This document shows, in pieces, positions 1,990 to 18,783 of a DNA stretch of 64,000 bases. The number at the start of each line of letters is the position of its first letter. Position 1 is the stretch's first letter. The notes under the pieces are model-generated. The model was not told where the DNA came from. It saw nothing but the letters and a program-made list of their open reading frames with translations, and made no database searches. This DNA comes from Nanobdellota archaeon (GTDB lineage Archaea; Nanobdellota; Nanobdellia; Tiddalikarchaeales; Tiddalikarchaeaceae): contig JAFGFH010000008.1 in NCBI GenBank assembly GCA_016931175.1, forward strand, positions 18,477 to 82,476, given 5' to 3'. Position numbers and translations under genes: made by a program.

Positions 1990-2775
1990 TCACTTTATTC
2001 CTTTAATTACTTCAACTATCTTTTCTCTTATTTTAAAACTTTTCGTTAAGCAGTTCCCAACTTCTTCAAGAGTGAAGCCTCCTTCTCCTCCTTTCTGCAA
2101 AGCGTTGATTTCCTTATCACTGCAGGTAACGGTTAGTCTCGCAGAAGCGCACTTCTCCTCTTCATTGTCAGGATCAACCATTATCTTATCCTCTATTTTA
2201 ACAAAAGTTATTGGTATTGGAACCCTTTTGAAAGGAACCTTTTCATCTGTCCATTCCCCGAGAACCACGTTCCCTTCCTCGTCAAGCTTAGGCATCCTCG
2301 CTGTTTTAAGAGCAGCTATTGAAGCCAAACCGCACGCGTCGATTAAGTTGCCCGCATTATTCAGTATGTAAAAGTCTACGAAGATGTTCCACACCTTCTC
2401 TCCTTCAACAATGCAAAGTTTTTCAAAATCAACAGCTTCACTTTCCCTGATTCCCCTGTCAACAACTCTTGACAACTCTATAGCATCCTCTCTAGGAGGT
2501 CCTGGTTCGAAGTCAGGGTCTGATATTGGACTTAACTCTCCAGAGCATATCAGGTTTCCCTTGTTTGGAGTGTCAGGGTAAGGAGTTCCTATGCTCATCT
2601 TAACCCCTGCCATTACAATAGTATCTCCTATGCTAACCTTAGCGCTTCCTTCAGCGTTCTTGCTCACGCCTGATTCTATTATAACATTCCTGAACTCTTC
2701 AAGCCCCCTGTTATCCGTGTTTCTCTTGTTCTTCTTTGCAAGTTCTATTATGTAATTCTTCACATCTTGACTCAT
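1990..2775 (-). CDS. rrp42: Exosome complex component Rrp42 (RNase PH-like, inactive subunit)
   Basis: 261 aa with an RNase PH fold pattern. Position is downstream of rrp41 in the superoperon. Confidence 0.8.
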   Translation of the reverse strand: MSQDVKNYIIELAKKNKRNTDNRGLEEFRNVIIESGVSKNAEGSAKVSIGDTIVMAGVKMSIGTPYPDTPNKGNLICSGELSPISDPDFEPGPPREDAIELSRVVDRGIRESEAVDFEKLCIVEGEKVWNIFVDFYILNNAGNLIDACGLASIAALKTARMPKLDEEGNVVLGEWTDEKVPFKRVPIPITFVKIEDKIMVDPDNEEEKCASARLTVTCSDKEINALQKGGEGGFTLEEVGNCLTKSFKIREKIVEVIKGIK

Positions 2776-4148
2776 TTTTTATCACTCTTTAATAATTGTT
2801 TTGCAATCTTGTCAGCTTCCTTAACCAATTCCTTGCTGACTACTCCTTCCTTTTCGTAATCTTCAAGCAAGTCTTTGCCAATAACTTCCTTGTTATCATC
2901 AGCAGTGTTAACCACTAATTCAAGGGATATTGCTACTGCCCTGTTAGACTGCAGTTCTATTGGAGTGTTTATTGAATAAAAGACTGCTTTTAATTCGTCA
3001 TCTTTAGAGTAAAACTCGTGCTTAACAAACCATTCATCATCTTTAATCAATGAATGCACGTAGTCTCCTCTTTCAACACTCATATTTATAGGTCTGAGAA
3101 CTGAACCGCTCTTAACAAACCTCTTAATTTTTATTACATTATTCTCTTTCTCAATGATTCTTCCCTTCAAAAAATTCGTAGAACCATTCATTTTATTCTC
3201 TGCTATTAAGTAAATGTCTCCTAATTTAGCACCTTTCTCGCTCGTGAATTCAGCAATCTTCTCATTTATCTTCTTCTCGTTTAGCTTTTCTTTTATTAAG
3301 TTCTCGCTGAAGTCAACAATGTTGGCGAAGATGTCAGTCTTTAAACTGTGATGGTTCTCAATTGTTGGCTTTATCTCCCTTCTTAATTTGTCAAGCTCCT
3401 GCTTTGTCTCCTTGTCAAACCTTATATAACAAGTCATTACTCCTTTGCTTAAGACTTTAATATTGTCCTCTTTCTCAAATGCTCTCTTTATATTAGCATA
3501 ACCTTCGTACAAGTCTTTAATCTCTTTCACAAGCTCTTCTTTTTTCTTGCTCGCAGCGCTCGTCTTCCATAAAGCACCCCATCCTTCCTCACAGTTCTCT
3601 TCAGCAACGTTGTTTAACAAGTTAATCACTTCCTTGTCTTTTATGTTATTTGATATCTTAGTGAATCCTTTCTGGATTAGTACAACATTGTTGCCGAACA
3701 AGTGTATCTTGGTTGATAACACGTAACAGTCCTTCTCTTCATTCTTTAACTGGACTAGTATCTTCTCGCCCTCTTTCACATAACCCCAGTAATCCTTCAA
3801 AGGCAATAGTCCAATCTTTTTCAAACCTAAGTCAACGTGTATGTTCTTAGTGTTAGGGTCTAATTTGATTATTTTTCCCAAATACAAGTGTCCGCTGGTT
3901 TCAGTCTGGATTACTGCATTCTTAAACTTTCTGAATATCTCGCAGACCTTATCCGCTTCTTCTCCTTTAACTATGATGCCTCCCTTGTCTGAGAAATCGT
4001 GAATCATAGTTGTGTAGTCTTCAGCAAACTTTGCCTTGCTGAAGCTTGCCCTGACATTATCACTTGGTTGTGCAACACTCATCTTATTCTTTAATAACAA
4101 GTTAGTTATTGCACTGCTGTAGATTCCTCTTATTTTAACTCCGCTCAT
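2772..4148 (-). CDS. FAU-1-like RNA-binding protein / RNase E/G-like ribonuclease
   Basis: 458 aa. The N-terminus MSGVKIRGIYSSAITNLLL...VAQPS resembles the conserved start of archaeal FAU-1 (RGIYSTAL...QPS). The size is typical of that family. Assigned from memory of the family, not a search. Confidence 0.45.
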   Translation of the reverse strand: MSGVKIRGIYSSAITNLLLKNKMSVAQPSDNVRASFSKAKFAEDYTTMIHDFSDKGGIIVKGEEADKVCEIFRKFKNAVIQTETSGHLYLGKIIKLDPNTKNIHVDLGLKKIGLLPLKDYWGYVKEGEKILVQLKNEEKDCYVLSTKIHLFGNNVVLIQKGFTKISNNIKDKEVINLLNNVAEENCEEGWGALWKTSAASKKKEELVKEIKDLYEGYANIKRAFEKEDNIKVLSKGVMTCYIRFDKETKQELDKLRREIKPTIENHHSLKTDIFANIVDFSENLIKEKLNEKKINEKIAEFTSEKGAKLGDIYLIAENKMNGSTNFLKGRIIEKENNVIKIKRFVKSGSVLRPINMSVERGDYVHSLIKDDEWFVKHEFYSKDDELKAVFYSINTPIELQSNRAVAISLELVVNTADDNKEVIGKDLLEDYEKEGVVSKELVKEADKIAKQLLKSDKK

Positions 4149-4855
4149 TTTGTCTCATACCTCTTTTTGAAAACGTCTTTCATCATTTTGTGAATCTCTT
4201 CACAACCCTTGATTCCAAGCTTTATTGCTTCCATTAAATCCTTCTCACTTATCTTACCATCTAATTGAAGCAGTGTTATCTCCTTCTCGCTTGGTATGTA
4301 AGCTATTGGGATGTCAGTCGCGCCTTCACCGTCGTGAACATCCTCTTCCTGCTTTGTTAAATCCAAACAGATTAAATCATCTATTTTCCCGCACGCAACT
4401 GCTGGCACGAAATCTCTCATCTCAATGCCTGCATCAGCAACTGCTAAACTAGCAGCTATTATCGCCGCGCACCTGCTTCCCGCGTCAGCCTGAACTATTT
4501 CAACAAAGACTTCAATCATACTCATAGGGTATTTCTCTACGAATATTGATCTCTCAATAGCATTCTTTATAACAAGACCTAATTCAATGCTTCTCCTGCT
4601 TGGACCAGGTCTTGCTCTGTCAGTAACGCTGAAACTCACAAGGTCGTAATAGCACCTTATTAATAATTTGTCTTTAAGCTCTGCATGCTTAGGCCTTACT
4701 TTTCTTGGCCCGTAAACTCCTGCAATAGCTACAGTCTTTCCAACCTGGACTCTAGCGCTTCCAGTACAGTTTGGCAGTATGCCAACACTCATCTCTACTG
4801 GTCTTAACTCGTCAGCTTTTCTGCCGTCAAATCTTCCTGTTTTTTTGTAACTCAT
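4145..4855 (-). CDS. rrp41: Exosome complex exonuclease Rrp41 (RNase PH catalytic subunit)
   Basis: 236 aa RNase PH domain with phosphate-binding region (RADGR-like RPVEM..., GSA...G). Start overlaps rrp4 by 4 nt. Confidence 0.85.
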   Translation of the reverse strand: MSYKKTGRFDGRKADELRPVEMSVGILPNCTGSARVQVGKTVAIAGVYGPRKVRPKHAELKDKLLIRCYYDLVSFSVTDRARPGPSRRSIELGLVIKNAIERSIFVEKYPMSMIEVFVEIVQADAGSRCAAIIAASLAVADAGIEMRDFVPAVACGKIDDLICLDLTKQEEDVHDGEGATDIPIAYIPSEKEITLLQLDGKISEKDLMEAIKLGIKGCEEIHKMMKDVFKKRYETK

Positions 4856-6256: not shown

Positions 6257-6963
6257 AATTTAGTTTTTAACTTTTTCAAATCTATCTTGGTGAACATTTT
6301 AGTGGTAGTATCAACGTATGCGCCTTCAACCCTGTCAAGATCAAACTTGCCATTCAATCCATTCTTCAATGCGTTTATTGCAAGTTTAAGCGCTTCTTCG
6401 TAAGAGAGGTTTTCTTTATAATTCTTGTTTAAGTAATCTATTATCTCTCTGCTATTTGCTCCAATAGCTCCTGCCTTAAGTTCAAAAAAGACCCCGCTAA
6501 CCTCTGTCATGAACAGGTGAGGTTCTTCATCAACCCCTGCTATTAACAGGCTTACTCCAAAAGGCCTCATTCCTCCATACTGGGTGAATGCCTGCTTCTG
6601 GTTGCAAACGTCTTTAACTAAACCCTTAACATCCATTGCTTCATCATAAGTTGTCTTATGATTCTGAGCTACTTGCTGAGCCCTGTCAATCAATACTCTG
6701 CCGTCGCTAGGCAATCCGCTTATTGCGGCACCGACGTGGTCGTCGATTTTAATTATCTTTTCTACGCTTGAAGGTATGACTAGTTTTTCTAGTATTCTCT
6801 TATCAACTAGTAATAAAACTCCTCCTTTGTACAAGATACCTATAGCAGGCGTTCCTTGATTAACAGTCTCTTTAGCGTATTCTACCTGTAAAAGTCTGCC
6901 GTCCGGGGAGAAGACTGTAATTGCTCTATCGTACCCCATAACGTCACCAGGAAAATTTGCCAT
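6253..6963 (-). CDS. psmA: Proteasome subunit alpha
   Basis: 236 aa. N-terminal YDRAITVFSPDGRLLQVEYA is the canonical proteasome alpha signature. Confidence 0.9.
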   Translation of the reverse strand: MANFPGDVMGYDRAITVFSPDGRLLQVEYAKETVNQGTPAIGILYKGGVLLLVDKRILEKLVIPSSVEKIIKIDDHVGAAISGLPSDGRVLIDRAQQVAQNHKTTYDEAMDVKGLVKDVCNQKQAFTQYGGMRPFGVSLLIAGVDEEPHLFMTEVSGVFFELKAGAIGANSREIIDYLNKNYKENLSYEEALKLAINALKNGLNGKFDLDRVEGAYVDTTTKMFTKIDLKKLKTKL

Positions 6964-7273
6964 GTTTTAACTTTTCACCTTTAATTTTTTTTATTATACC
7001 GCTGGTCTTCAGCGTGTTTATTACAACTCTTTTACCATTAATAACTCTTATCAAAGAGAGAATGTTTATCATCTCATCCTTGAATTTAGGATTCACGCGC
7101 ACAATATTAGTGCCTACGAGCATAACACCCGCCCTGCTGAACCCTTCCTCCCCAAGGAGTTCAAGAGTCTTCTGGTATATACTATTCTTTACTTCGTCTT
7201 TAAAAACCTTTTCCTCACCGATTACCTCGAACAGAATATACCTCTTCTTCTCCCTAGAACTTGGTAAAATCAT
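6944..7273 (-). CDS. rnp2: RNase P protein component 2 (Pop5/Rpp14)
   Basis: The KKRYILFEV motif is typical of Pop5. Start chosen at the internal Met (MILPSSREKKRY). A TATA-like TTTAAAATA lies about 25 nt upstream on the minus strand. Confidence 0.65.
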   Translation of the reverse strand: MILPSSREKKRYILFEVIGEEKVFKDEVKNSIYQKTLELLGEEGFSRAGVMLVGTNIVRVNPKFKDEMINILSLIRVINGKRVVINTLKTSGIIKKIKGEKLKHGKFSW

Positions 7274-7305
7274 ATTATAATTAAAGATTATAGAGTATTT
7301 TAAAC

Positions 7306-7722
7306 TTACCAATCACTTGTTAATGAATAAGATTCAGGCCTCCAAACTGCACTTTTTAAGAATCTGCTGTCAATATCGTAATGGTTTATGTAAATTCTAG
7401 TGAAAGGCATGTAATCCCTTAAGAAATTAAGAGCTATTGGCAGTATTAAAGACTCATCTTCTTTTAAAGACTGGGATTTAACCAGGAGCGAGGGGGTGTG
7501 AATCAAAATGTGTTCATCCTCAGCGGGCAAGTACTCTAACCCTTTCTCATTATTTTTATGAACAATGCTAGAGAAATAAATCTCTAACGCTTCTTCATTA
7601 CTTACATGGTTCACCATTAAGCATTCAAAACCTTTCGGAGGGCTAATCTTTGAAATACTAACTTGTTCATCGAATAAGTCACACAAGCACCTTCTTATAT
7701 TATCAAGAACATTAGCGTTCAT
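7306..7722 (-). CDS. Hypothetical protein (138 aa), second gene of a two-gene insert between rnp3 and rnp2
   Basis: ORF with protein-like composition and no recognisable motif. Lies 5 nt downstream of the preceding ORF, in a different frame. Confidence 0.4.
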   Translation of the reverse strand: MNANVLDNIRRCLCDLFDEQVSISKISPPKGFECLMVNHVSNEEALEIYFSSIVHKNNEKGLEYLPAEDEHILIHTPSLLVKSQSLKEDESLILPIALNFLRDYMPFTRIYINHYDIDSRFLKSAVWRPESYSLTSDW

Positions 7723-7727
7723 TATAA

Positions 7728-8057
7728 TTAAACCTCGATTATGCGTGCACCAGGCATTACTTGTTTAATCTCTCCTATAATAAAATCTTTGCAGCTGCCT
7801 TCATATTCCAGCTTGAAATAACCTTCACTAGTATAAGTAACGTAACTAACCTCGTAATCCCTTGTTCTTTCAGTTATTAATAGAACATAACATTGATTAT
7901 TTAAATAAGAGTTGACACTCATTAAATCATCATCAGTGAATAATCTATCAAGGTTGTCTTTTAAATGCCTTAAAGGGTTATCAATAGGTATAACAACTTC
8001 ATCCCTTTTTACCTTGCTACTCAAACAACTCATTCCAATAGCAGGATGCATAAACAA
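7728..8057 (-). CDS. Hypothetical protein (109 aa), first gene of a two-gene insert between rnp3 and rnp2
   Basis: ORF preceded on the minus strand by GGTTTATAATAAG, a TATA-like box about 30 nt upstream of the ATG. Confidence 0.4.
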   Translation of the reverse strand: MFMHPAIGMSCLSSKVKRDEVVIPIDNPLRHLKDNLDRLFTDDDLMSVNSYLNNQCYVLLITERTRDYEVSYVTYTSEGYFKLEYEGSCKDFIIGEIKQVMPGARIIEV

Positions 8058-8083
8058 AATTACTAAAAAGTTCTTATTATAAA

Positions 8084-8105
8084 CCTTGCCTTTTTTTTAT
8101 CAAGG
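8084..8105 (-). terminator. Hairpin with oligo-U loop overlapping the rnp3 stop codon (CCTTG-AUAAAAAAAAGG-CAAGG)
   Basis: 5-bp inverted repeat CCTTG/CAAGG flanking an A/T run. On the minus strand it reads through the TGA stop of the upstream gene and precedes the promoter of the next ORF. Confidence 0.3.
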
Positions 8106-8621
8106 AAATATCTTGTTAAAACTTTTTTTTACCCTGCTGAAATTATCAATACCTAAACTCTTTGCCCAAGTCTTAATCTCTAAACCGTTAAATAATTCAT
8201 ACCTGTTCTTGGCGCAGCTGGCGAATAATACAGGCATGTCATACTTAATTGCGCGCCTCATGTTCTCCTTCATCCTTCTAATAATAACTGCCCGCTTATC
8301 GCCTGAAGTATTTAATAACAATCCTAAATTGAAAACTGCTGCTATCTTCTTCTCAGCCATTATCTTGGCAATCGTGTCATCAATGCCAGCCCTCGGGTAA
8401 TGAAGACTGTCCTTTTCATGAATTAGTTCACTGTTTATTACGCCGAAAGGAAGCATCTGCTCAACTGCTTTGCGCAATAATTTAGAATCCTTTGTGTCCA
8501 GGAATACAATATTTTTCCTGTCAAATTTTAAATCACTCTTAATCACAGCACTGCCTACTGTAATATTAAAGACTTTCTTATCATCCTCACTAATATTATA
8601 CAATACGCAGGCATCAAACAT
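8100..8621 (-). CDS. rnp3: RNase P protein component 3 (Rpp30-like), short form
   Basis: 173 aa. The block GIDDTIAKIMAEKKIAAVFNLGLLL...S.A matches the conserved Rpp30 pattern GID..AKLM...A.GF.L..LL. It is the first gene of the superoperon. Confidence 0.5.
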   Translation of the reverse strand: MFDACVLYNISEDDKKVFNITVGSAVIKSDLKFDRKNIVFLDTKDSKLLRKAVEQMLPFGVINSELIHEKDSLHYPRAGIDDTIAKIMAEKKIAAVFNLGLLLNTSGDKRAVIIRRMKENMRRAIKYDMPVLFASCAKNRYELFNGLEIKTWAKSLGIDNFSRVKKSFNKIFP

Positions 8622-9353: not shown

Positions 9354-11366
9354 ATGAAGAGGCTGTTATTGTTGCTGCTTTTTATCCCTTCAGCCTTTGC
9401 TTTAGACTGTGCAGGACTTGACCCGACAGATGTTTCATCAGCAGTTATAGATTATCACGCGTTTGGGGACATAAGTATTACTTACAGCAGCCAGCAAGCA
9501 GTTGTTGAAAACCTTACAGCAACCATAAGAGTTGTTCCGCAGAAAGACACGTCTAACGAGGTTTATACAGGAGTTTTAACAAAGGGTTACTTTAATAACA
9601 CTGTATTATTATTCAAGCAGGACAGAGTCACGGAAAGCATAGTATCCTGGGATTTTAAAAGCACAGTGAGTTCAAGCACTGTTTTTCCAAGAATCACTGA
9701 AAATCCCGTCTTCCCTTACCCTGTAGAAGACTTACCTTTAGATGTCAGGGGTTATATTGAATTCACAGAGGTAGCAGATAATAGTCCTTTAATACAAGCA
9801 CGAGTTAATGAACTTTTAAGCGGCGTCACTGATTACTTCACAGCAATAGCTTTAATATCAGAATTCGTCGCTTACTACCTGGAATACAATTTAAACTATG
9901 CTCCAGTATCCACACCCGCCAGCGAGGTTTACACTCAGAAGAACGGGGTATGCGATGAGTTCTCAACACTTATGGCAAGCATGCTTAGAAACGTTGGCAT
10001 ACCTACTCGTTTCGTAAGCGGTTTTGCCTTCACCAACTCCGGAGCTCAAAGATGTTCAAACTTCGGACCGCACAGTTGGATTGAAATATACGTTCCAGGA
10101 CACGGCTGGCTACCAACAGACCCGACTTATAAAGAGTTTTTCTGGGTTGATGCAGGCCACGTCCCATTATACACGAGTAATGATGCCAGCACTAAAATAA
10201 TAAACGCGTCAATACTATACGTTGATGCTTCATTCTCAATAAGTTCTCCAGAATTTGATATTGAATTCTTAAACTACCAGTCTCCTCAGCAAATATTAAC
10301 ATTTACTTCAACCCGTTCTTTTGAAGAGGTTGGAACTGGAGACTACGTTTTACTAACAGTGACTGTAACTAATCCATACAATCAATGGTTTCTTGACACA
10401 GCTTACTTGTCCACTACTAGTGATATGAGTGTTGTTTACAATAATAAGGCGTCAGCGTTAATACTTCCTCCTAAGACTGATACTAATATTTATTACATAT
10501 TAAAAACTCCTGACGTAATCTCCGAGACATGCTTTGCACAAGGCCTCTGCAATATCGTCTTTCCAATATCAATAAGTCTTGGAAGCGGAGGATTCCAATT
10601 AACAAATATAACCGTAAACCCTAACGTTGAAATGCAGGACTATTACAACACTTACTTGAGTGAGATAAGCAGTTATGAAAGAGTTTATTCAACAAACCTG
10701 GGAGTGTCAAGAATTAATATAAACCCTAACGTTGTTACTGAAGAACAGCCAGTATTAAGCTTTGACGTTCAAAACCTTGGCAACACTCAATTAGATAATG
10801 TTGTTATTGACATCAGTTACGGTGACGTTCAATACTCTGAAAATATTGGTTCATTATTCATAAGCGAGTCAAAGACTTACACTAAGATTCTTCAACTACC
10901 TTCAACAACAGGAGTTATACCTGTAAGCTGCAGTGTTTCATCAGCTAACGTGACAGTTAATTTCAACACGACTTTTTCAATAGTAAGCTCGCCTCCTTTC
11001 GATTTTTCAATCTCAGGAGACGCTAATTATACAACGAGTGAGGATTACAATCTTAACCTTCAATTTTCCAGCATACCAAGCAATTACTTGAACGCTAATC
11101 TTAAGATATTAATAAACAATGAAGAAGTAATCAACAAGCCGTTCTACTTCAGCAGTTCAGTAATTAAAATACCTAAGAAAGAATTCGTGTTCGGAGAGAA
11201 TACTATTTCTGCAATACTCACGTATGACAACGTTGAAGGCGAACAGTTCAAGACGCAAGCATCTTCCCGGGTTTATAACTCGTTACAGCGTTCCTTCATC
11301 GAATTAGTGATGGAATACATTAATGCCGTAATAGATGTTTTCAAGATACTTCTCGGCCTGCAATAG
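9354..11366 (+). CDS. Secreted/surface transglutaminase-like cysteine protease domain protein
   Basis: N-terminal signal peptide MKRLLLLLLFIPSAFA. Transglutaminase core with catalytic Cys (GVCDEFSTLMASMLR), His (HSWIEIYV) and Asp (LPTDPT). Long Asn/Ser/Thr-rich C-terminal region. Confidence 0.65.
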   Translation: MKRLLLLLLFIPSAFALDCAGLDPTDVSSAVIDYHAFGDISITYSSQQAVVENLTATIRVVPQKDTSNEVYTGVLTKGYFNNTVLLFKQDRVTESIVSWDFKSTVSSSTVFPRITENPVFPYPVEDLPLDVRGYIEFTEVADNSPLIQARVNELLSGVTDYFTAIALISEFVAYYLEYNLNYAPVSTPASEVYTQKNGVCDEFSTLMASMLRNVGIPTRFVSGFAFTNSGAQRCSNFGPHSWIEIYVPGHGWLPTDPTYKEFFWVDAGHVPLYTSNDASTKIINASILYVDASFSISSPEFDIEFLNYQSPQQILTFTSTRSFEEVGTGDYVLLTVTVTNPYNQWFLDTAYLSTTSDMSVVYNNKASALILPPKTDTNIYYILKTPDVISETCFAQGLCNIVFPISISLGSGGFQLTNITVNPNVEMQDYYNTYLSEISSYERVYSTNLGVSRININPNVVTEEQPVLSFDVQNLGNTQLDNVVIDISYGDVQYSENIGSLFISESKTYTKILQLPSTTGVIPVSCSVSSANVTVNFNTTFSIVSSPPFDFSISGDANYTTSEDYNLNLQFSSIPSNYLNANLKILINNEEVINKPFYFSSSVIKIPKKEFVFGENTISAILTYDNVEGEQFKTQASSRVYNSLQRSFIELVMEYINAVIDVFKILLGLQ

Positions 11367-17262: not shown

Positions 17263-18783
17263 TTATATAAACTTTGACATGTAAGTATTGTCACTCACAT
17301 ATCCTAACCTGCGGTAGTAACCTCTCACACCTACACCGCTGATAACCTTAACTTTTTTCAAACCATTTTTACCAGCTAGTTTCTCAGCCTCTATTAAAAG
17401 CATCTTCCCTATTTCCTTATGCTGGACGATTCCTGCCTCTCCGAAACCTGCCTGTTCCCCGTAGACGTGCAGTTCCCTCACTAACAGTTCCCTGCTTTTT
17501 GCAGGTATTCTAACTCTTATGAAACCATATAATACATCTTTTTTGTCGCAATATTCTATGAAGTATTCTTCACCTTTGCTTGCAAAGTATTTAGAAATTT
17601 TTAAACCAGCTGTTTCGAAACTGCCCTTATTCCTGCCTGCCTCCCTGCACCTTATGCATTTACACCTCCATCCTTTGCTGTTTAACTCTGCCTGCACTAA
17701 TTGTCTTAAGTTGCTGCTCTTCAAGTCCTGCTCTATCTTAAAGCTTGGAATATCCCTCTGCAAGCGCATAATTCTTACAAAATTGGGAACAATCCTCTTA
17801 ATCCTTGCTAAAAGTTTTATAGTCTGCTTCTGAGAGTAAGGCTTCCACTTCTTTGCAAAAAACCATTCATACAATCTAGTGCCTTTAACAAGCAGTGTAG
17901 GGTAAATCTTTATCATGTCAGGTTTGAAACGCGAATCAGTGAATACTCTCTTAAAACATTCAAAATCCTTCTTAACATCACTTCCAGGCATATTAGTCAT
18001 TATGTGATAATTTATCTTAAAACCCGCATCTTTCAGCATCCTTGTTGCTTCAACAACACTCTTAACATCATGCCCCCTACCGCTTTTTTTCAAAACACTG
18101 TCATAAACTGACTGCACTCCTAACTCTACCCTGGTAGCTCCGAGTTCAAGCATTCTCTTAATTGTTTTCTTATTAATCTCATCAGGCCTTGTTTCAATAG
18201 TTAAACCAACACATCTGTGCTTCCCAGTCTCGTTCAAAACCTGCATCTCTTTTAACGTTCCTCTCTTCTTATTATTCAAAGCCCTGAAGCAGTCTGTTAC
18301 GAATTCTCTCTGGTACTTCCAGCTTCTGCTGGTAAAAGTACCTCCCATTATAATAAGTTCAACCTTGTTAGGAATCTGCCCAATAATATAATACTGTTCT
18401 AACCTGTTTTTGACCTGCTTGTAAGCGTTATAATTATTCATCTTAGCTCTTAAAGCAGCAGGTTCTTCGCCAGTATAACTCTGCGGAGTCATGAATTCAA
18501 CACCTCCAGGGCAGAAAACGCACTTGCCATGCGGGCACTTGGCAGGACTAGTCATTACAGCAACAACACTAACACCGCTTAAAGCCCTGCTAGGCTTTCT
18601 AGAAAACACCTTCAAATTACTCTTTTTGTACAAATCAGCATCGCTTATAACTCCTGCTATGCCGTACTTCTTGCTCACTAATCTCTTAACCTTATGCACT
18701 TCATTCTTTGAAGAAATCTTTCCTCTCCTAACACAGCTAATAATTTCATCAACTGCTTTATCGTAAGTTTTATTAGTTTTCAT
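17263..18783 (-). CDS. elp3: Elongator complex protein 3 homolog (radical SAM + GNAT, tRNA U34 modification)
   Basis: Radical SAM cluster region CPHGKCVFCPGG and a C-terminal GNAT acetyltransferase domain. 506 aa. Confidence 0.85.
   Translation of the reverse strand: MKTNKTYDKAVDEIISCVRRGKISSKNEVHKVKRLVSKKYGIAGVISDADLYKKSNLKVFSRKPSRALSGVSVVAVMTSPAKCPHGKCVFCPGGVEFMTPQSYTGEEPAALRAKMNNYNAYKQVKNRLEQYYIIGQIPNKVELIIMGGTFTSRSWKYQREFVTDCFRALNNKKRGTLKEMQVLNETGKHRCVGLTIETRPDEINKKTIKRMLELGATRVELGVQSVYDSVLKKSGRGHDVKSVVEATRMLKDAGFKINYHIMTNMPGSDVKKDFECFKRVFTDSRFKPDMIKIYPTLLVKGTRLYEWFFAKKWKPYSQKQTIKLLARIKRIVPNFVRIMRLQRDIPSFKIEQDLKSSNLRQLVQAELNSKGWRCKCIRCREAGRNKGSFETAGLKISKYFASKGEEYFIEYCDKKDVLYGFIRVRIPAKSRELLVRELHVYGEQAGFGEAGIVQHKEIGKMLLIEAEKLAGKNGLKKVKVISGVGVRGYYRRLGYVSDNTYMSKFI

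Follow-up and report, generated by a model that had tools for sequence, protein, structure and literature searches.

Two orphan genes between rnp3 and rnp2 of a Nanoarchaeota genome are probably one allele of a hypervariable accessory-gene slot

Why should two small open reading frames (ORFs) without recognisable relatives stand between rnp3 and rnp2, the genes of the RNase P proteins Rpp30 and Pop5, inside one of the most conserved operons of archaea? The locus lies in a 64,000-nt stretch, hereafter the window, of a Nanoarchaeota metagenome-assembled genome (MAG; Nanobdellota archaeon, GenBank assembly GCA_016931175.1, contig JAFGFH010000008.1 of 95,453 bp, positions 18,477 to 82,476), and the two ORFs carry the NCBI tags JW791_01240 and JW791_01245. 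A sequence-only reading of the window had described them as a cassette with its own promoter, inserted into the operon and resembling a toxin-antitoxin (TA) or small accessory cassette; its coordinates, the 5-nt spacing of the ORFs and the change of frame between them proved correct, with both ORFs on the minus strand. Here, our comparison with related genomes indicates that the pair is probably one allele of a hypervariable accessory-gene slot, which extends from the rnp3 stop codon to the rnp2 promoter in a clade of Nanoarchaeota. An accessory cassette between rnp3 and rnp2 was therefore rightly recognised, and the comparison adds that its place is occupied by other genes in the relatives.

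The relatives were found through PsmA homologues at 60-80% identity and their contigs were compared (loci are given L numbers). A PsmA scan of genome contigs returned only a distant Thermoproteota locus, while a metagenome scan with the Rpp30 alignment returned at least two loci, one of them new (L012). In all relatives about 10 kb around the junction is collinear, whereas the rnp3-rnp2 junction is not: L002-L009 and the window all have the order AspRS, transglutaminase, methyltransferase, Rpp30, slot, Pop5, PsmA, SBDS, Rrp4, Rrp41, RNase E/G, Rrp42, and different small genes occupy the slot in nearly every relative without any change in the flanking synteny. In L002 and L025, the most basal relatives sampled, the slot is empty and the two genes, which the sequence-only reading had called usually adjacent, overlap by a few nucleotides; this overlap is the ancestral state. 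In the clade that includes the window, the junction has opened into a spacer of about 0.6-1.3 kb holding one to three genes, with a promoter of Pop5's own at its right edge. The spacer contains same-strand genes of 137 and 155 aa in L003 and five further contigs (L004, L013-16), one of 124 aa in L012 and L019, and genes of 303 and 58 aa in L009. It contains a reverse gene of 143 aa followed by one of 150 aa in L005 or by two of 141 and 122 aa in L007, and a reverse gene of 206 aa in L006. On the reverse strand, L008 and L024 carry a PemK/MazF toxin gene (30.6 bits, cut-off 23.1) overlapping an upstream RHH/VapB-like antitoxin gene, and L023 carries a receiver domain. Altogether, at least eight different slot contents and two empty junctions were counted among 11 distinct lineages. 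Slot genes are kept between L005 and L007 (53% and 74% identity), and no orthologue of either window ORF was found in any relative. The sequence-only reading would have been refuted by housekeeping-type homologues kept at this place throughout the lineage, and for neither ORF did the searches or the synteny show anything of the kind.

Five flank proteins were concatenated (1004 columns), and the neighbour-joining tree built from them, without bootstrap, placed the empty junctions of L002 and L025 at the base, followed by the groups (window, (L003, L009)) and (L006, (L008, (L005, L007))). Most simply, a single opening of the junction in the clade's ancestor was followed by the gain of a separate Pop5 promoter, with slot contents turning over ever since. 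The earlier description of the pair as inserted is thus apt as regards the clade, in whose history the junction opened, but not as a recent event in this genome, since the slot is filled in all eight distinct clade members sampled.

Replacement of one slot allele by another was observed within a single species. L012 and L003 share 99.3% identity in the final 447 nt of rnp3 and 99.94% in the 1738 nt that begin 41 nt upstream of Pop5, and between these flanks they hold 458 and 936 nt, respectively, with no DNA similarity. The edges are sharp: the left one falls in the last codons of rnp3 and the right one at the stop codon of the last slot gene. Across the relatives, the Rpp30 alignment likewise loses its conservation right after ...FNKIF, the final 0-6 residues being variable. 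The contigs of three independent assemblies (L020, L021 and L022) start precisely at this right edge (41 nt upstream of Pop5), and two further contigs (L017 and L018) break inside the slot; assembly breaks of this kind usually betray alleles that exist side by side. For both alleles, carrier MAGs have names with the same 'CG' sample prefix.

The slot holds only the two ORFs, no integrase is encoded in the window, and no tRNA lies within 7 kb. Only 12-nt repeats at chance level were seen at the locus; the direct repeat TTTAATTATAAT, also of 12 nt, brackets ORF138 and does not rise above chance in this AT-rich DNA (blastn E=7). A diversity-generating retroelement or other template-repeat mechanism was rejected, as no copy of the island DNA occurs elsewhere in the 64-kb window. 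With conserved flanks, and with neither an integrase or tRNA nor flanking or template repeats, the most economical route of exchange would be homologous recombination by way of these flanks, slot contents being swapped through the conserved housekeeping genes on either side. The pair itself would be transcribed as a leaderless bicistronic mRNA, independently of rnp3, and its products may be soluble acidic proteins of the cytoplasm that the cell can do without and on which diversifying or strain-specific selection acts. We very tentatively suggest a role of the conflict or immunity type, which would put the pair in one ecological class with the mazEF module that the slot houses in relatives and set it apart from RNase P or exosome subunits.

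Are the two ORFs genes? Together they occupy about 90% of the 826-nt rnp3-rnp2 spacer. In 5000 first-order Markov simulations of this spacer (32% G+C), an ORF of at least 138 codons arose 15 times, and one of that length accompanied by a second of at least 107 codons never did. A codon log-likelihood, for which 47 long window ORFs served as the training set, was positive solely in the called frames (0.24 and 0.20 per codon), the other five frames scoring between -0.5 and -1.5. Both values lie 1.7-2.2 standard deviations under those of the window genes (0.36 +/- 0.075, n=47), and the AT skew of the cassette is about 0, against -0.15 to -0.3 in the neighbouring genes, in which the coding strand is strongly purine-rich. 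These ORFs are plausible genes of atypical composition. A split gene or frameshift was considered as an explanation of the pair and rejected for want of evidence, the second gene having its own ATG and a Shine-Dalgarno (SD)-like motif, and an Rfam scan of the locus returned no noncoding RNA family at E<0.25.

The promoter claimed for the first ORF in the sequence-only reading agrees with the pattern of its own genome. Among 30 window genes with an upstream gap, 19 have a TTTTAWA-type box, usually after A-rich sequence, that starts at -36 to -28 from the ATG, a position that implies mostly leaderless or short-leader mRNAs. This pattern is also useful for correcting start codons in this MAG. In the cassette, the TATA-like GGTTTATAATAAG begins at -32 from the ATG at 8051 and fits both the consensus and the distance, as do the boxes of other slot genes in the relatives. 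The first ORF had been read as 109 aa from a TTG at 8057, and the NCBI call gives 101 aa from an ATG at 8033; with the box at -32, the ATG at 8051 (107 aa) is preferred over both. As judged from the sequence, this spacing favours a leaderless or near-leaderless mRNA for the first gene. At the right edge, Pop5 has a box of its own (GTTTAAAATA), the predicted promoter of the downstream Pop5-PsmA-SBDS-exosome unit. An equivalent box lies within the 41-nt conserved right edge of L003 and L012, and slot-less L002 and L025 have no such Pop5 promoter. A further element, the hairpin with an oligo-U loop at the rnp3 stop codon, could not be upheld: the region folds no better than its shuffles (z = -0.47, with 65 of 200 shuffles folding equally well), the stem is absent from the minimum-energy fold, and on the transcript the loop reads oligo-A. 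The hairpin does not exceed chance expectation and is probably a non-functional element.

Searches for relatives of the two proteins were unproductive. A word-seeded search of 5.8 billion proteins with both ORFs returned self-matches only, and a full, filter-free HMMER search with ORF138 against 1.84 billion representatives added one match, P0123 (E=4e-13), which was rejected as spurious; this low-complexity protein of 743 aa contains tandem repeats, and the match is made up of nine weak stretches. Neither ORF matched anything in Pfam (E<=10), NCBIfam, PADLOC or PHROGs, or among PDB sequences or viral contigs. AlphaFold2, run without an alignment, gave for ORF138 a weak model (predicted local distance difference test, pLDDT, 58) with the topology helix, four strands, helix, three strands, and for ORF107 an unusable one (pLDDT 41). 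In a Foldseek comparison of the weak ORF138 model with PDB and BFVD, no match was better than E=0.005 and the TM score did not exceed 0.39. Neither protein thus has a detectable homologue, family or fold, although the fold evidence is limited by the weak models.

By contrast, two novel families could be recognised among the same-strand slot proteins of the relatives. L003_137, L003_155, L012_124 and the two halves of L009_303 make up Family A, which is marked by the motifs [LI][IL]YS[NS][VI]YA, G-x-G-[LIM]-L and P-x3-[IL][YF][AL]Q; Family B comprises L005_150, L007_141 and L007_122. Members of both are acidic, measure 120-155 aa per domain, often stand as tandem paralogues (A+A or B+B), and nearly every gene has its own consensus promoter. 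Neither family has a relative in Pfam, PADLOC or PHROG, profile searches against PDB sequences gave nothing, and the Family B profile found nothing among viral contigs. No relation between the two families was detected. The 143-aa reverse protein, which is 74% identical between L005 and L007, shows weak FR47/GNAT matches (E=0.016 and 0.17) and carries the JGI label 'ERCC4-type nuclease'; the idea that Family A is a degenerate GNAT fold akin to it was dropped (hhalign P=0.14, no PDB match).

Several other explanations of the window pair were weighed against an exchangeable accessory slot. That the ORFs are a TA module, with a 107-aa antitoxin and a 138-aa toxin autoregulated from their own promoter, appears unlikely. 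The pair does resemble type II modules (mazEF/pemIK, vapBC) in being small, tightly spaced, co-oriented, orphan, patchy in distribution and preceded by a promoter, and a canonical PemK/MazF and RHH/VapB-like pair occupies the same slot in L008 and L024. Both window proteins are acidic, however, and no toxin or antitoxin family was matched in the databases above. Of the folds anticipated for the 138-aa protein, PIN/VapC found no family match and the predicted topology is not PIN-like, and Foldseek retrieved no PIN, MazF or RelE fold (best E=0.012), all on the low-confidence model. For the first protein (107 or 101 aa), expected to be antitoxin-like, no antitoxin or DNA-binding family was matched at E<=10, and a possible likeness of its N-terminal KVKRDEVVIPID stretch to AbrB/MazE-type antitoxins has no profile support. 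Same-strand slot genes of the relatives, moreover, often occur as tandem paralogues, which is not a TA architecture and speaks for a different sort of protein. The resemblance noted in the sequence-only reading therefore holds for the two-gene architecture and for the slot, which does house a true TA pair elsewhere, but not for any signature in the window pair; a TA reading of the pair is neither supported nor excluded, and the label should not be applied to it. It is very improbable that the ORFs are non-functional frames in a decaying or neutral spacer left behind when the rnp3-rnp2 overlap broke. The lack of any homologue in the searches made, the depressed codon scores and the low AlphaFold confidence would suit such debris. 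Against it stand the simulations and the frame-specific codon signal, a consensus promoter at the consensus distance, the SD-like motif before the second gene, the clearly conserved slot proteins of L005 and L007, and the compactness of these genomes, in which genes abut or overlap across the slot and its flanks. Least probable of all is that the proteins serve RNase P, the exosome or the proteasome as accessory subunits or regulators peculiar to this lineage and co-expressed with the superoperon, for instance as acidic partners of the very basic Rpp30 and Pop5. The ORFs do lie on the same strand inside the conserved superoperon, and their pI of about 5 contrasts with 9.6-10 for Rpp30 and Pop5. 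They are nevertheless absent from L002 and L025, and other relatives have in their place genes on the opposite strand, a TA module or a receiver domain. They also belong to a slot whose alleles are exchanged inside one species, and have their own promoter, which makes co-transcription with the superoperon not obligatory.

A more substantial alternative, possible though we hold it to be less probable than not, is that W138 is an extremely diverged Family A protein and W107 a Family B protein, the slot being one ancient, fast-evolving and tandemly duplicating locus and not a site of foreign cassettes. All slot proteins share the slot and strand, a size of 107-155 aa per domain, a pI of 4.4-6.1 and two to four cysteines, and in the tree the window is placed as sister to L003 and L009, both of which carry Family A. 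In support of this notion, hhalign aligned Family A with W138 over 80 collinear columns at 25% identity, W138 and L003_155 have the gapless motif IY-x9-F-x2-S-x-V in common, and the hidden Markov model score was reached by 14 of 5000 shuffles for W138 against Family A and by 93 of 5000 for W107 against Family B; Family A alleles of a single species are already only about 20% identical. The hhalign P values are, on the other hand, only 0.09 (W138 and Family A) and 0.026 (W107 and Family B), W138 ranks 6th against 406 natural non-member ORFs and W107 9th against 407, and the two families themselves show no detectable kinship. W138 lacks the Family A G-x-G motif, and between W107 and Family B only the 15-residue motif DDLMSVNSYLNNQ aligns. 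A bolder version, to which we give quite low odds, would make the slot an ancient balanced polymorphism instead of a passive receptacle: Families A and B and the window orphans would form one resident, tandemly duplicating superfamily, retained in precisely this place because it acts on the neighbouring machinery, perhaps by mimicking RNA or by shielding the very basic Rpp30 and Pop5, or tRNA processing, from toxins, viruses or host factors, and negative frequency-dependent selection would drive its alleles to about 20% identity within a species. An exchangeable slot remains the reading that we favour, and several points weigh against it. Should the weak hints be right that place W138 in Family A and W107 in Family B as ultra-divergent members, part of the variability would reflect fast sequence evolution, not cassette exchange. 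The window species is represented by a single contig, the allelic variation having been seen in the L003/L012 species, and recombination through the flanks is deduced from the pattern. The flank-protein tree carries no support values, and the assignment to a conflict or immunity class would draw on location, acidity and variability, with no homology behind it.

The features of the locus are collected in the table. Past Pop5, the minus strand continues with PsmA, SBDS, Rrp4, Rrp41, an RNase E/G-like gene and Rrp42, and the Pop5 N-terminus MILPSSREKKRY is common to the window, L003 and L009. The RNase E/G-like gene occupies the same position in the exosome operon in L002-L010 and L025, that is, in the clade and its outgroups. 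The PF01876 match of the window Rpp30 is below the gathering score and covers model positions 90-209 of 214; Rpp30 is short throughout the clade (172-178 aa), and the partial match suggests that the N-terminal part of the barrel may be truncated. A transglutaminase-core protein, divergent from the methyltransferase-rnp3 unit and kept in all relatives, has a hydrophobic N-terminus that reads as signal-like. An antisense 107-aa ORF, open within Pop5 in both the window and L003, was rejected as a gene and is a shadow of the purine-rich coding strand. In L008, a 797-aa ORF without a Pfam match stands between the methyltransferase and Rpp30 in this one relative only, which makes the junction one gene upstream of the slot a second variable one. 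In L010 (Candidatus Tiddalikarchaeum), rnp3 does not recognisably adjoin rnp2, and the 334-aa ORF upstream of Pop5 matches neither Pfam nor the Rpp30 hidden Markov model of the clade.

Table. Positions of the features at the rnp3-rnp2 slot and its surroundings; positions are those of the window unless a relative is named.
Feature	Position	Strand	Description
Transglutaminase-core protein	9354-11366	plus	670 aa
S-adenosylmethionine (SAM) methyltransferase	9334-8648	minus	
rnp3 (Rpp30)	8100-8621	minus	173 aa; PF01876 E=2.9e-7; NCBIfam RNase P component 3 E=3e-12; left slot flank
Hairpin of the sequence-only reading	8084-8105	minus	5-bp stem CCTTG/CAAGG; 12-nt loop, oligo-A on transcript
Predicted cassette promoter	8076-8098	minus	A-rich 8098-8091 (A8 run), then TATA-like TTTATAAT at 8083-8076
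First cassette gene (ORF107, product W107; JW791_01245)	7728-8051	minus	107 aa from ATG 8051; pI 4.9, acidic; 3 Cys; orphan
GAGGT, SD-like	7732-7736	minus	10-14 nt upstream of the second-gene ATG, leaving 9 nt between; putative function
Second cassette gene (ORF138, product W138; JW791_01240)	7306-7722	minus	138 aa; pI 5.0, acidic; 3 Cys; orphan
Direct repeat, copy at ORF138	7721-7732		12 nt; ends at the ORF138 ATG
Direct repeat, copy at Pop5	7274-7285		12 nt; just before the Pop5 ATG
Pop5 TATA-like box TTTAAAAT	7297-7304	minus	-31 from the Pop5 ATG, directly past the ORF138 stop; right slot edge
rnp2 (Pop5)	ATG 7273 to 6944	minus	109 aa; PF01900 E=8.7e-13; right slot flank
Antisense ORF in Pop5	6957-7280	plus	107 aa; not a gene
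Antisense ORF in Pop5, L003	4684-5007	minus	107 aa; not a gene
Rrp41	4145-4855	minus	
RNase E/G-like gene	2772-4148	minus	about 458 aa; PF10150, FAU-1-type
Rrp42	1990-2775	minus	
Reverse slot protein, L005	3699-4130	minus	143 aa
Reverse slot protein, L007	3338-3769	minus	143 aa
ORF between methyltransferase and Rpp30, L008	1118-3511		797 aa
ORF upstream of Pop5, L010	3641-4645		334 aa

The archaeal exosome/RNase P/proteasome superoperon was reportedly described by Koonin, Wolf and Aravind in 2001. The term superoperon is also used elsewhere (PMC2695463). The window keeps its order of Rpp30, Pop5, PsmA, SBDS, Rrp4, Rrp41 and Rrp42, and departs from it in the variable spacer that parts rnp3 from rnp2, in the promoter of Pop5's own and in the RNase E/G-like gene between Rrp41 and Rrp42. 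Next to polymorphic toxin loci, small and divergent genes of the immunity type are known to stand in arrays, and the slot recalls them, by analogy only, in its small, acidic, fast-diverging proteins, tandem paralogues and strain-level replacement; no toxin gene adjoins the slot, however, and no homology to any immunity family was found. The window pair also differs from type II TA modules, for all its likeness in layout, as no toxin or antitoxin domain, fold or DNA-binding domain was detected in it.

The closest comparison is with replacement-type flexible genomic islands, the hotspots of horizontal gene transfer between core genes that are known from bacterial and archaeal pangenomes. Like them, the slot combines identical core flanks with differing content, sharp edges, within-species allele replacement, atypical composition, many orphan genes and assembly breaks at its edges. 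Unlike them, it is tiny (0.6-1.3 kb, one to three genes), carries no mobility genes and lies, in a reduced DPANN genome, within an information-processing superoperon that archaea conserve universally, and where typical flexible islands encode surface polysaccharides or defence, it encodes mostly two families of small acidic proteins. The tiny genomes of DPANN archaea are rich in orphan genes, and the turnover of their flexible genes is little understood. Literature searches yielded nothing on this locus, and its Families A and B had not been described before. In this setting, a compact, mobility-gene-free swap-slot with strain-level allele replacement in one of the most conserved archaeal operons has a practical side as well: the conserved Rpp30 and Pop5 flanks allow amplification by polymerase chain reaction or read recruitment, offering an anchored marker for microdiversity, recombination and conflict genes in uncultivated Nanoarchaeota. 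The slot is best described as a new instance of a known phenomenon, the replacement-type flexible islet between core genes, at a new and very compact locus.

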